NCBI GenBank assembly: GCA_964583985.1 | Contig: CAZOYD010000029.1 | Coordinates: 1 to 39,773, forward strand | Length of the DNA stretch: 39,773 nt | Origin: an uncultured archaeon | Lineage (GTDB): Archaea; Asgardarchaeota; Lokiarchaeia; Sigyniarchaeales; SOKP01 | Reading direction: 5' to 3' | In this document: positions 9,322 through 12,933 of the stretch, piece after piece | Layout of the letters: each line of letters begins with the position of its first letter | Position numbering within the stretch: position 1 is the first letter of the stretch | Position numbers and translations under genes: made by a program | The notes under the pieces: model-generated | Database searches by the model: none | Told to the model about the DNA's origin: nothing | Seen by the model: the letters and a program-made list of their open reading frames with translations, nothing else

Positions 9322-12189
9322 TCAAGTTATCACTTCTAAATGAGTTGATACTTCACTATTGTTTATCTTAAATGTCCACATATCTCTGTTGTCATCTAGC
9401 TTATTAAAAATTGCGTCCGCTTGAACGGATTTTTGGATGTAATCTTGATACTTCGAAATCGCTTCTAAAATTTCATCGTCTTCAGCAATAAAGTATAGAT
9501 TTATTCTATTATTCGTCGATAGATTTATTTTCTTCCTATAATTATTAATATTTCGTATCAAGTTTCTAGCTATTCCTTCTAATTTCAGTTCTTTCGTGAT
9601 TTCTGTATCCAATTCTATGGATAATTCGGTCACATCTTCATTTTCAACAATGATTTCTTTCACATTTAATGCATTTGTAATTATCTCCAAAAATTCCTCT
9701 TTTAAACTTACTCCTTTCAGTGTTATCTTTTTTAATACTTGTCGCAATGGCATCTTGGCGTTTTCTCTTAATTCCAAAGATTTTTGAACAATTTCCTGTG
9801 TTAAATTCATTTTATCACGTAAGTTTGGATAGAAAAGATTTTGATCGACGCCTGGCCATAGATCCAAATGTACCGATTCGTATTTTGCGAGATTTTTTTC
9901 CCTTAATTTCTGATAAATCATTTCAGAAATGAAGGGGGTAAATGGAGCCAAAATTTTTGATAAATTATGAAGTACGTACGTCAAAGTATTCATAGCGCCT
10001 AATTTTTCTTTTAATTGATCGCTTTTAAATCTATTTCTGCTATTTTTGATGTACCACGTTGATAAATCTTCAACAAAATTAATAATTAATTTGCTTGCCT
10101 CTGCCGTCTCATAATCATCTAATTGGTGAGTCACTTCTAATGCAAGATTATTTACTAAATCTACAATCCATTTATCTAAAACATTTTCCGGTTTGGGTTT
10201 TTCTATAGATACACTGTTGATTTCAAACAAGGAATAGAAATTAAGAACATTTAATAATAACAAATTAAATCTCCGATAAAGTTGTTTAACTATTTCTTCT
10301 TTAAAGTTTAAATCCTTTGCTCGCATTAATTGAGATGCTAATAAATACATCCTTAAGGCATCAGCGCCATAAGATTCTATTATCAAAGATGGATCGGGGT
10401 AATTTTTTTTTGATTTTGACATTTTGGTACCATCTTCGGCAAGGATATTCCCATTTACTACTATATTTTTAAACGGAATTTCATCAAATATAAGAATAGA
10501 GATTACGTGCATGTAGTAAAACCAAGCTCTTACTTGTCCGATATATTCAGAAACAAAATCACTAGGAAAATTGTGTTTAAACCAATCCACATTCTCAAAA
10601 GGATAATGCTTTGCAGCATATGGCATTGAACCTGATTCGAGCCAACAGTCAAACACTTCAGGTATTCGATTCATTACATTTCCACATTCAGAGCACTTTA
10701 AATGTATATCATCTACGATGTGTCTATGCAGGTCTAAATTATCAGGAACTGCTTCGATAGCGAATTCTTGGAGTTCTTTCACAGAACCTATCACTTTAAT
10801 TGCATGACATTGCTCGCATTCCCATATTGGCATGGCAGTAGCCCAAAATCGATTTCTCGAAATACACCAATCAGGAGCATTTTCTAATATGTATTGATAC
10901 CTTTTGGAAATATCTTTAGGATACCAATTGATTTTTTCATTTGTTTTAAGAAGCTTCGATTTTATTTTTTGAATGTTTATGAACCAAGCATCAAGAGCGT
11001 TATATATCAAAGGTGTATCGCATCTATAACAAAATGGATAAGAATGCTTGTAGTCCTCTGTCAAATATGAAAGATTTCTACTATTCAAGTCTTTTAAGAC
11101 TTCTTTATCAACATTCTTAAACCATAATCCCCTCCATTCTTCTGGACCATCAGCTAGTTTTCCGTGTTCATCAATATGTTGAATTATTGGCATATCATAC
11201 TTGTTAATCATTTCATAATCAAATTCTCCATAAATTGCCATATGTACTATTCCCGTGCCTTCATCTGACAAGACTTCTTCACCTCCATCGATGACAAAAT
11301 GACCTAATTTTTCAGTCTCGGCAGAAACTTGGTATAATGGTTCGTATTGTCTATTTATTAATTCGGTTCCTTTAAATTCATCCACAATTTCATAATTCTC
11401 ACTTATTATATCTAATCGAGTTTTACTCAAAATCAAAAATTCTTTTCCTACCTTGATTTTTACATAGTCAAGTTTGCCATTTACTGCCAAAGCGACATTT
11501 CCAATTAACGTCCATGGTGTTGTGCTCCAAGCAAGCAAAAATGTATCTGAAGTACCCTTTAATTTGAATTTCACTATTACTGATTCCTCAATAACGTCTT
11601 TATAGCTATTATCCATGGAAATTTCAGAATTTGAGAGGGGTGTTTCACATCTTGGACAATATAGAAGAATCTTTTTACCTTTATACACGTGACCTTCATC
11701 ATATATCTTCTTAAATATGAACCAAATAGTTTCCATGTACGAATTATCCATTGTTTTATAAGCATTATCAAATTCAATCCATTTCCCCATCCGTTCGACC
11801 GTGTTTTTCCATTCATTCGTATACCAAAGAACTTTCGATCTGCAGAATTCGTTGAATTCACATAAACCCATTTCATATATTTCGTTCTTTTGTTTTAAAT
11901 TTAAAGCTTGTTCGCAAATACTCTCAATAGGAAGTCCATGACAATCCCAACCCCATCTTCTTTCGCAGCGATGATTTTTCATCGTCCAGTACCTTGGAAA
12001 TACGTCTTTTGTGACAAAACTTAAAATATGTCCGTAATGGGGTAAGCCCGTGGCAAATGGAGGTCCATCGTAAAATACATATGGATTAGTGCTTGGTCTA
12101 GATTCAACACTTTTTTCAAAAATTTTATTTTCTTTCCAAAACTGGATTATTTCTTCTTCTTTTTTAACATATGACATGTAATCTACCAT
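9322..12189 (-). CDS. ileS: Isoleucine--tRNA ligase, type 2 (eukaryote/IleRS2-like)
   Basis: DGPPFATGLPHYGH (HIGH), GWDCHGLPIE, WSTTPWT, DWCISRNRFW, KMSKS, YGADALR. Confidence 0.96.
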   Translation of the reverse strand: MVDYMSYVKKEEEIIQFWKENKIFEKSVESRPSTNPYVFYDGPPFATGLPHYGHILSFVTKDVFPRYWTMKNHRCERRWGWDCHGLPIESICEQALNLKQKNEIYEMGLCEFNEFCRSKVLWYTNEWKNTVERMGKWIEFDNAYKTMDNSYMETIWFIFKKIYDEGHVYKGKKILLYCPRCETPLSNSEISMDNSYKDVIEESVIVKFKLKGTSDTFLLAWSTTPWTLIGNVALAVNGKLDYVKIKVGKEFLILSKTRLDIISENYEIVDEFKGTELINRQYEPLYQVSAETEKLGHFVIDGGEEVLSDEGTGIVHMAIYGEFDYEMINKYDMPIIQHIDEHGKLADGPEEWRGLWFKNVDKEVLKDLNSRNLSYLTEDYKHSYPFCYRCDTPLIYNALDAWFINIQKIKSKLLKTNEKINWYPKDISKRYQYILENAPDWCISRNRFWATAMPIWECEQCHAIKVIGSVKELQEFAIEAVPDNLDLHRHIVDDIHLKCSECGNVMNRIPEVFDCWLESGSMPYAAKHYPFENVDWFKHNFPSDFVSEYIGQVRAWFYYMHVISILIFDEIPFKNIVVNGNILAEDGTKMSKSKKNYPDPSLIIESYGADALRMYLLASQLMRAKDLNFKEEIVKQLYRRFNLLLLNVLNFYSLFEINSVSIEKPKPENVLDKWIVDLVNNLALEVTHQLDDYETAEASKLIINFVEDLSTWYIKNSRNRFKSDQLKEKLGAMNTLTYVLHNLSKILAPFTPFISEMIYQKLREKNLAKYESVHLDLWPGVDQNLFYPNLRDKMNLTQEIVQKSLELRENAKMPLRQVLKKITLKGVSLKEEFLEIITNALNVKEIIVENEDVTELSIELDTEITKELKLEGIARNLIRNINNYRKKINLSTNNRINLYFIAEDDEILEAISKYQDYIQKSVQADAIFNKLDDNRDMWTFKINNSEVSTHLEVIT

Positions 12190-12249
12190 ATTTTGATATT
12201 TTATCTTTTTGAAATTTTATTTATTATTTACTATAAGTTCTATTTTTTA

Positions 12250-12297
12250 TTTATGAAACAGGATGTGGATAATTTCTTTCGAAATTCGTTTCATAAA
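12250..12297 (-). promoter_or_regulatory. RNA hairpin in the ileS 5' leader
   Basis: Perfect 10-bp inverted repeat (12250-12259 / 12288-12297) enclosing a 6-bp stem with a GAAA tetraloop (12271-12286) and a bulge AUCCACAUCCU. Confidence 0.65.
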
Positions 12298-12307
12298 GAA
12301 AAGAATT

Positions 12308-12382
12308 TTATCTAATAATAATTTCGGATATGATCTCTATGAAATTTGATTTTATACCTAAAAATTTAGATTTTTCATTCAT
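12308..12382 (-). CDS. Putative Ile-rich leader peptide of ileS, MNEKSKFLGIKSNFIEIISEIIIR* (24 aa)
   Basis: ATG at 12382 preceded by purine-rich GGATGTGGA; 7 Ile codons, 6 of them in the last 10 codons including ATT ATT ATT; stop is 118 nt upstream of the ileS ATG on the same strand. Confidence 0.72.
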   Translation of the reverse strand: MNEKSKFLGIKSNFIEIISEIIIR

Positions 12383-12423
12383 AACATCCACATCCGTAAT
12401 TGTATTTAAAATAAAGTAAAGAG

Positions 12424-12431
12424 TTTATAAA
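12424..12431 (-). promoter_or_regulatory. Putative TATA box for the leader-ileS transcript
   Basis: TTTATAAA about 42 nt upstream of the leader ATG, which places the TSS near 12400. The AT-rich context lowers specificity. Confidence 0.35.
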
Positions 12432-12480
12432 AATATAACGGAACTTTGGGTCGAATCAAAACTCAACTGAGTTTTATAAG

Positions 12481-12933
12481 TCACTTAAATTCTAAATATT
12501 GAAGGCGTGAGTATCCCTTTTTTATGAAATCATAATCAAGGAGCTCTATTTTTTCCGGAACTATTTTTAAAATTAGGTTTCTTTTTCCTCGTACTATTTT
12601 TTGAGCTTTTTCAAAATATTCATCTCCTTCTCTCAAAAATATCAATCTCTCTTTACCAGAAGCAGTAATTTGCATTCCTTGGATTTTCCCGGTATCCATG
12701 GGTGTATAGATTCCAATACTCACATTCGGGTTTTCTTCGATATTTCTAACCTTCCTCCCTGGAGCAGGTCCCACGTAAATATTGAAATTATCTTGAGATT
12801 TATCCATGTAAAAATCCATTGGAGTGGCACGAGGTATGTTGTCCGAACATGTGCATAAAACAATAATTTTCCTTTTCTCTAAAAAATTCCGGATTTCTTT
12901 TTTTAGCTCATCTTCAGGCATCCTAATAGACAT
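12481..12933 (-). CDS. Pyridoxamine 5'-phosphate oxidase-like (FMN/F420-binding split barrel) protein
   Basis: VLCTCSDNIPRATPM, RKVRNIEENPNVSIGI, LKIVPEKIELLDY. Confidence 0.85.
   Translation of the reverse strand: MSIRMPEDELKKEIRNFLEKRKIIVLCTCSDNIPRATPMDFYMDKSQDNFNIYVGPAPGRKVRNIEENPNVSIGIYTPMDTGKIQGMQITASGKERLIFLREGDEYFEKAQKIVRGKRNLILKIVPEKIELLDYDFIKKGYSRLQYLEFK

Follow-up and report, generated by a model that had tools for sequence, protein, structure and literature searches.

The window analysed here is a 39,773-nt stretch of DNA from a Lokiarchaeia genome. It encodes a bacterial-type isoleucyl-tRNA synthetase (ileS), and the 291 nt that separate ileS from a small PNPOx-like ORF contain a leader element of ~158 nt, the features of which are compiled in Table 1. 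Directly 3′ of the stop codon of the upstream PNPOx-like ORF, the sequence contains an 8-bp hairpin (AAAACUCA / UGAGUUUU, 4-nt loop; 12457-12476, minus strand) that no U run follows.

The encoded IleRS is short and of bacterial type. Its nearest relatives outside this archaeal group are bacterial (44-53% identity), and most genomes of the genus carry an archaeal IleRS of 1050-1090 aa that is only 37% identical to the enzyme of the window. We regard ileS as horizontally acquired by Lokiarchaeia from bacteria. In the window's own genome (G000, 100% complete by markers) the bacterial-type enzyme is the only IleRS detected, as it is in G006 and G105, while two relatives (G008 and G023) have an archaeal IleRS alongside it. 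Since the bacterial-type IleRS stands alone in some genomes, the imported gene has replaced the native one in some lineages.

Table 1 Coordinates of the leader features and of ileS in the window, in the order of transcription
Feature	Position	Strand	Remarks
TATA-like box, core AUUUUUAA, with C/G-containing stretch upstream	12424-12440	-	Invariant columns in 25 aligned leaders
Second conserved A/T-rich block	12402-12420	-	Conserved columns
Leader Shine-Dalgarno site (SD), GGAUGUGGAU, 5′ arm of the long-range helix	12386-12395	-	Core 8-mer identical in 48/49 homologues
Leader ORF, 24 codons plus stop, MNEKSKFLGIKSNFIEIISEIIIR	12308-12382	-	ORF kept in 49/49 homologues
ORF-internal anti-SD (aSD1), AUCAUAUCC plus G, 3′ strand of hairpin P1	12325-12334	-	98.2% paired
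Three AUU Ile codons (codons 21-23), presumed sensing codons	12314-12322	-	Zero entropy, 41 distinct sequences
Pyrimidine/U-rich tract right after the leader stop	12295-12307	-	Position conserved in all leaders
P2 5′ strand (outer stem of the original prediction)	12287-12297	-	Covariation, including U:A extension
Inner GAAA-capped stem-loop within the P2 loop	12271-12287	-	Window's clade only
Loop anti-SD (aSD2), AUCCACAUCC, 3′ arm of the long-range helix	12261-12270	-	98.9% paired, compensatory changes, low entropy
P2 3′ strand plus A-tract pairing with the U-tract	12245-12260	-	Consensus fold, covariation
ileS, bacterial-type isoleucyl-tRNA synthetase	9322-12177	-	Start ATG at 12177 (MSY...), preceded by a GGU-type SD

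The TATA-like box is the putative promoter of the leader transcript, which would start ~26 nt downstream of the box and 5-10 nt 5′ of the SD. The A/T-rich block that follows could be a promoter-proximal element; if it is instead an alternative TATA box, the transcript would be leaderless. The 3′ end of GGAUGUGGAU lies 3 nt before the leader AUG (12382-12380, minus strand), a spacing at which the genome as a whole shows a 10-fold enrichment of SD-like motifs upstream of ATGs. The 3′ end of the genome's 16S rRNA reads GGAUCACCUCCU, and the leader SD pairs with this tail at -7.6 kcal/mol.

The original prediction had proposed a long-range 10-bp pairing between the ribosome-binding region of the leader and the bulge of a hairpin. 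We found GGAUGUGGAU (12395-12386, minus strand) to be the exact reverse complement of AUCCACAUCC (12270-12261), and the latter does lie in a hairpin loop, with a 10-bp outer stem (12297-12288 with 12259-12250) on one side and a GAAA-capped 6-bp inner stem on the other. This loop segment, aSD2, is located at the 3′ edge of the P2 loop and adjoins the P2 3′ strand with zero linker. The accompanying claim that such a match is unlikely by chance is weaker than it was put: a 10-mer inverted match with at least five G+C occurs in ~0.1% of dinucleotide shuffles of the 291-nt intergenic region, but in 30% of shuffles of the whole 39.8-kb window (mean 0.45 per window). The 8-mer SD core, GGATGTGG, has 109 occurrences genome-wide, and a chance complement no more than 250 nt away is expected ~0.2-0.4 times. 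It is therefore conservation in homologous leaders, and not single-sequence statistics, that takes the SD:aSD2 match beyond chance.

Homologous leaders were collected by protein-guided retrieval in genome and metagenome collections, which yielded 25 distinct upstream regions. A covariance model built from these regions was used to search 150 Lokiarchaeia (Promethearchaeota) genomes of the order, and the final alignment set comprises 49 distinct leaders with lengths of 144-161 nt. The element was detected in 38 of the 150 genomes, in exactly one copy each. All leader-bearing genomes belong to one family and come from two genera, the window's own (9 of 41 genomes) and a second one (29 of 53), and the contigs of near-identical loci belong to Promethearchaeota (Lokiarchaeia). 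Wherever the downstream flank of a locus was read, the leader is followed by the bacterial-type ileS, even where the upstream genes differ. It is absent upstream of all 17 canonical archaeal ileS loci examined, nor was it found in front of ileS genes that are more distantly related to this one (29-66% identity).

Covariation analysis of these homologues, the check proposed with the original prediction, showed the long-range pairing to be conserved: in the 49 distinct leaders, nine of the ten pairs are kept in 98.9% of cells. Among these first nine pairs, five are invariant, two vary through G.U only and two show compensatory change, namely G-C to A-U in leader L127, with a G.U intermediate in L063, and A-U to U-A in L005. 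The unpaired cells number five: L058 and L132 each have a U.U in the centre of the helix, and the other three cells are at the ninth pair. The tenth pair is unpaired in 7 of 25 leaders of the first alignment. Since the SD core is nearly invariant (GGAUGUGG(AU) in the leader consensus, with an identical core in 48 of 49 leaders), true SD:aSD2 covariation amounts to two events, each in a single sequence. One-sided changes in the SD and anti-SD segments are all transitions, ~58% of which would by our own estimate be wobble-compatible under neutrality, and wobble-only substitutions were therefore rejected as proof of pairing. The fitting of alignments A3 and A4 to the model took P1 and P2 into account, but not the long-range helix. 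Column entropy is 0.0 for the SD, 0.11 for the aSD2 loop 8-mer and 0.84 for the remaining loop, and the difference between the latter two values argues that the loop 8-mer is under selection. We thus regard SD:aSD2 as real in the sense of conserved complementarity and as very probably functional. That it is a functionless coincidence in A/T-rich non-coding DNA is scarcely credible: the 30% of shuffled windows with a match and the genome-wide expectation for the 8-mer pair would allow for it, but the match has been kept in 49 distinct leaders of two genera, in which the loop and spacer around it have diverged.

The loop segment is not the sole partner of the SD. A second complement, aSD1 (AUCAUAUCC, 12334-12326), lies within the leader ORF, where it spans codons 17-19, one codon upstream of the Ile triplet; the hairpin P1 that it forms with the SD in the predicted fold would mask both the leader SD and the start codon. 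SD:aSD1 is paired in 98.2% of cells of the 49 leaders, with changes on both sides at two pairs. The flanking pair, formed by the base 5′ of the 8-mer and the base 3′ of aSD1, covaries (U-A in 26, C-G in 13 and U-G in 8 sequences), and a further aSD1 pair is G.U in 35 sequences, G-C in 14 and mismatched in none. By these comparisons, SD:aSD1 is supported about as well as SD:aSD2. Both anti-SDs resemble the 3′ tail of 16S rRNA, and both carry an A opposite the U at which the leader SD departs from consensus. This shared non-consensus A argues for direct pairing of each anti-SD with the SD and against two independent resemblances. In L127, the G to A change in the SD is matched by a C to U change in both aSD1 and aSD2. 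We read SD:aSD2 as one of two competing anti-SD pairings within a larger leader-peptide device.

The outer stem of the loop hairpin, P2 (12297-12287 with 12260-12250), covaries strongly, with both-sided changes at 8 of 14 pairs in the 49 leaders, including the U:A extension; in the consensus fold, four U of the U-rich tract pair with the A-tract behind P2. The inner GAAA-capped stem is paired in 72% of cells overall in the first alignment (25 leaders) and is mostly lost in the other clade. A hairpin of the form AAAUUC...GAAUUU was considered as a possible competitor of P2; it is paired in 86-93% of cells but shows no covariation.

We calculated the energetics of the competing structures across the leaders. 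The mean duplex energies are -16.3 kcal/mol for SD:aSD2, -12.2 kcal/mol for SD:aSD1 and -7.6 kcal/mol for SD:16S, so that both cis anti-SDs form duplexes with the leader SD that are more stable than the one with 16S rRNA. SD:aSD2 crosses P2 in segment order. Mean fold energies of -28.6 kcal/mol for P1+P2, -29.0 kcal/mol for the pseudoknot (a rough estimate) and -28.8 kcal/mol for a nested fold in which SD:aSD2 replaces P2 are isoenergetic within model error. By our reasoning, with no nucleotide at the junction, 18 nt in the connecting loop and 88 nt in the ORF loop, it is sterically possible for the SD:aSD2 helix to stack coaxially on P2 as an H-type pseudoknot. In the model of the free leader RNA, the SD is 95% paired, with fractions of 0.40 to aSD1 and 0.44 to aSD2; when the footprint of a ribosome is masked at the Ile codons or at the stop, the fraction paired to aSD2 becomes 0.83-0.86. 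The two pairings are mutually exclusive, and the ribosome mask shifts the balance between them in these simulations. In our reading, the SD:aSD2 helix is most likely a stall-specific or post-translation state.

A simpler account would have only the local hairpin P1 form in vivo, with the loop 8-mer CCACAUCC kept for the binding of a protein or RNA and its complementarity to the SD a consequence of the general likeness between SD and anti-SD sequences. We consider this account unlikely, yet it draws on several observations. RNAalifold on the alignment selects SD:aSD1, the same segments are paired in the minimum free energy fold of the window, and SD:aSD1 has its high paired fraction and its covarying flanking pair; aSD1 is closer to the SD, is transcribed first and could alone explain SD sequestration. 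SD:aSD2, moreover, requires either a pseudoknot or loss of the well-supported P2 stem, and central U.U mismatches are tolerated in two leaders. Against it, changes in the SD are mirrored in aSD2 both in L127 (C to U opposite G to A) and in L005 (U-A in place of A-U); aSD2 also has the A that matches the non-consensus U of the SD and forms the strongest of the three duplexes. In every leader it lies directly next to the P2 3′ strand, an arrangement that would suit coaxial stacking, and no other complement of aSD2 was found, the ileS SD being no better a partner than shuffled sequences.

The alignment also bears on the possibility that the mRNA is leaderless and starts at the AUG, so that GGATGTGG would lie in the promoter and, together with its two inverted copies, would represent DNA sites recognised by a transcription factor. 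About 30 nt separate the AUG from the beginning of a conserved TTTTAAA-type box, and TATA-like motifs of SD-less genes in this genome are most frequent at just this distance; the concerted change of three copies in L127 would equally fit a shifted site preference of a protein. Differences between the copies are, however, almost all G.U-compatible on this strand, as at the aSD1 pair with 35 G.U, 14 G-C and zero mismatches, and the flanking base pair covaries. The 8-mer stands where an SD would be expected and can pair with the 16S tail; a G+C-rich sequence of this length would be unusual between a TATA box and the transcription start, and spacings of 55 and 119 bp are unlike those of operator half-sites. 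We therefore judge a leaderless mRNA improbable and treat the three segments as RNA elements.

The ORF that begins downstream of the SD is preserved in all 49 homologues at a length of 20-25 codons, with an ATG start in 48 and GTG in one, and its indels (3, 6 or 12 nt) are all in frame. The leader peptides contain 6-9 Ile each, and the Ile triplet is present in 49 of 49 leaders, followed by 0-2 codons and the stop. Small ORFs ending in III are common by chance (16 in this genome), so that the leader ORF, taken by itself in a single genome, would be no evidence. We judged the pairing between the AUU run and A/U-rich segments of the spacer to be chance in A/T-rich sequence and set it aside. The ORF might instead encode a functional peptide, and the pairing might serve fold-back inhibition unrelated to ileS, as in type I toxin mRNAs, in which sequestration of the SD by distant segments is typical; an N-terminal M-N-x-x-x-K/N-F-L motif is indeed fairly conserved. 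This explanation is very improbable in view of an element that precedes the bacterial-type ileS despite different upstream genes, a peptide that is not of the membrane toxin type and an invariant feature that is the Ile codon run, cognate to the downstream enzyme.

In its sequence, the leader shares two features with leader-peptide attenuators, namely an SD-led short ORF upstream and tandem codons cognate to the product of the downstream gene, IleRS. The original prediction had suggested an RNA switch that shuts off leader translation or toggles termination. The first option is supported by the strong selection on the SD and aSD2 segments, which stay complementary through wobble and compensatory changes, and since the 5′ arm of the helix is the Shine-Dalgarno site, SD:aSD2 pairing would shut off leader translation. 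For the second option, no terminator was found: a scan of 12100-12520 for bacterial terminators detected none, P2 has an A-tract and not a U run behind it, and only one clade has T runs in the spacer. Because the terminator is missing, we do not classify the leader as an attenuator of the trpL, ilvL or pheM type. The Rfam search that the original prediction had called for gave no family at gathering score in the window; a T-box covariance model had no match, the region 12100-12550 returned noise only (all Rfam E values at least 0.24), and neither tRNA nor tmRNA was found.

Two routes by which the switch might act on the SD of ileS itself were rejected. Exposure of the ileS SD by a stalled ribosome, as in ermC or cat, is at odds with predicted unpaired fractions of 0.44 in the free RNA and 0.42 with the ribosome mask; sequestration of the ileS SD by aSD2 would involve duplex energies no better than those of shuffles, with a mismatch in the window itself. 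As aSD2 has no partner in the ileS SD, the accessibility of the ileS SD is unchanged and there is no terminator, the folding model provides no route from the switch to ileS expression.

We lean, with modest confidence, towards a reading of the long-range pairing as one arm of a conserved isoleucine-sensing leader-peptide switch in front of the bacterial-type ileS. In the naked transcript, the SD would pair with the nearer aSD1 soon after transcription, and the resulting hairpin P1 would limit initiation to early-loading ribosomes close behind the polymerase. A translating ribosome would open P1. Under shortage of Ile-tRNA, a ribosome stalled on the AUU triplet would cover aSD1 within its trailing footprint, and the freed SD could then be captured by aSD2 in a helix that may stack coaxially on P2 to give a pseudoknot. 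This capture would block re-initiation on the leader and alter the fold around P2 and the U-rich tract, and the altered fold would, we assume, set read-through or stability of the ileS message. In this scheme, the sequence elements with their conservation and covariation, the kept ORF, the energetics and the association with ileS are observed; we infer (i) the presence of the SD in the transcript, (ii) the stalling of the ribosome, (iii) which fold is adopted when and (iv) the whole output step. Two candidates can be named for the output: a ribosome at the end of the ORF could hide a U-tract signal for termination by FttA/aCPSF1, by analogy with tnaC and Rho, or the pseudoknot at the 5′ end could change message stability. 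Archaeal RNA polymerase terminates at U tracts with FttA/aCPSF1 (PMC8716108, PMC11616081), and the U-rich tract behind the leader stop may act as such a signal. More tentatively, and as a possibility that we would not yet favour, the leader could be a working ribosome-mediated amino-acid sensor in Asgard archaea, in which a stall-switched 5′ pseudoknot governs read-through, via the U-tract and FttA/aCPSF1, or stability of the ileS message and in which the logic, possibly together with the leader, was imported with the bacterial gene and re-fitted to archaeal transcription.

Leader-peptide attenuation is a textbook bacterial mechanism that needs coupled transcription and translation, and E. coli pheM-pheST, ilvL, thrL and trpL are bacterial leader-peptide (ribosome-mediated) transcription attenuators. 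The archaeal leader shares with them an SD-led short upstream ORF with a run of cognate codons beside the stop, and predicted alternative RNA pairings that overlap the footprint of a ribosome at the cognate codons. It differs in that it lacks a G+C-rich hairpin followed by a U run and in that its pairings centre on the leader's own SD instead of on a terminator and antiterminator. The case closest in logic is pheM-pheST, where the regulated gene likewise encodes an aminoacyl-tRNA synthetase; pheST is named in PMC1262725. In a further parallel, to the trp leader, the ribosome-binding site would be sequestered by a segment of the same leader RNA that lies downstream of it. In E. coli, according to work reportedly carried out in the Yanofsky laboratory in the early 1980s, a distal segment of the trp leader transcript pairs with the leader ribosome-binding site, and this self-sequestration is said to limit leader translation to an early window. 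Unlike the trp leader, the archaeal element has two conserved anti-SDs, both mimics of the 16S tail, one of which is located in a hairpin loop and would form a pseudoknot helix.

A stalled ribosome controls Rho-dependent termination in E. coli tnaC. The archaeal leader resembles this system in that its regulatory codons are at the end of the ORF and a pyrimidine-rich tract lies behind the stop, so that a stalled ribosome could hide a factor-loading site; unlike in tnaC, the factor would, by pure inference, be FttA/aCPSF1 and not Rho. Control of factor-dependent termination by stalled ribosomes has been described as a general principle (PMC13675443). Translational T-boxes upstream of actinobacterial ileS sense uncharged tRNA and sequester the ileS SD (PMC1262725). 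Here, too, ileS stands behind an RNA leader with an SD that a hairpin is predicted to sequester, but this SD is that of the leader ORF, and the SD of ileS is unaffected in the model. Runs of cognate codons without a classical terminator are also found in the poly-Cys leaderless ORFs of mycobacteria (bioRxiv 10.1101/834739) and in candidate cys leaders in Actinobacteria (PMC1262725). These Cys leaders have in common with the archaeal element a small upstream ORF, cognate codons, the lack of a classical terminator and a non-canonical output; they are, however, bacterial, and a double anti-SD architecture is not described for them.

Our literature search found no published case of a leader-peptide attenuator in archaea. 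The test of the long-range helix, the triple concerted change in L127, the argument from 16S mimicry, the geometry of the junction and the finding of a sole IleRS are contributed here. The leader represents a conserved, sequence-defined candidate for an amino-acid gauge in Asgard archaea and would make it testable whether archaeal ribosomes and RNA polymerase act jointly as such a gauge, and by what means the gauge operates when a bacterial terminator is lacking. Its double anti-SD would be a compact natural bistable RNA around a ribosome-binding site, with two mimics of the 16S tail as rivals for a single SD. It would also illustrate how an imported essential gene, encoding the only IleRS of the genome, is wired into host control.

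Several further features were observed between the leader and ileS and at the ileS start. The consensus fold of the window's clade has a small local hairpin that comprises the SD, the start codon and the first codons of ileS (12175-12196, minus strand). Loci of the second genus have ATT, or in a few cases ATA, at the site that corresponds to the ileS ATG, ~170-190 nt after the leader (L039, L106, L108, L109, L111-L113, L116, L117, L119-L123, L125 and L126). A good Shine-Dalgarno site, AAGGTG, is found 7-8 nt upstream of this ATT or ATA, and the sole alternative start is an in-frame GTG inside the SD; from these sequences, the synthetase of the second genus seems to start at a near-cognate Ile codon. 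The spacer between P2 and ileS contains T runs of 5-10 in L038, L040, L041, L044, L063, L066 and L067 as well as in the second genus, followed ~45-60 nt before ileS by a conserved block with the consensus AATTAGTTWAATG, or TTTTTAAGT in the other genus. The window's clade is devoid of these T runs and of the block and has a ATTTATAAAA box instead. Either arrangement, T runs with block or ATTTATAAAA box, could be a terminator or a second promoter.

A different type of leader precedes a related ileS (46% identity) on a contig of Candidatus Absconditabacteria, a CPR bacterium (L053:1351-1450, plus strand). It contains a 15-codon ORF, MLKIQGIIINIIIHY, and a long hairpin that starts at the stop codon of the ORF and is followed by a U6 run, with a fold z-score of -2.7. 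By its sequence layout, this leader looks like a classical bacterial Ile leader-peptide attenuator, and it has no sequence in common with the archaeal leader.
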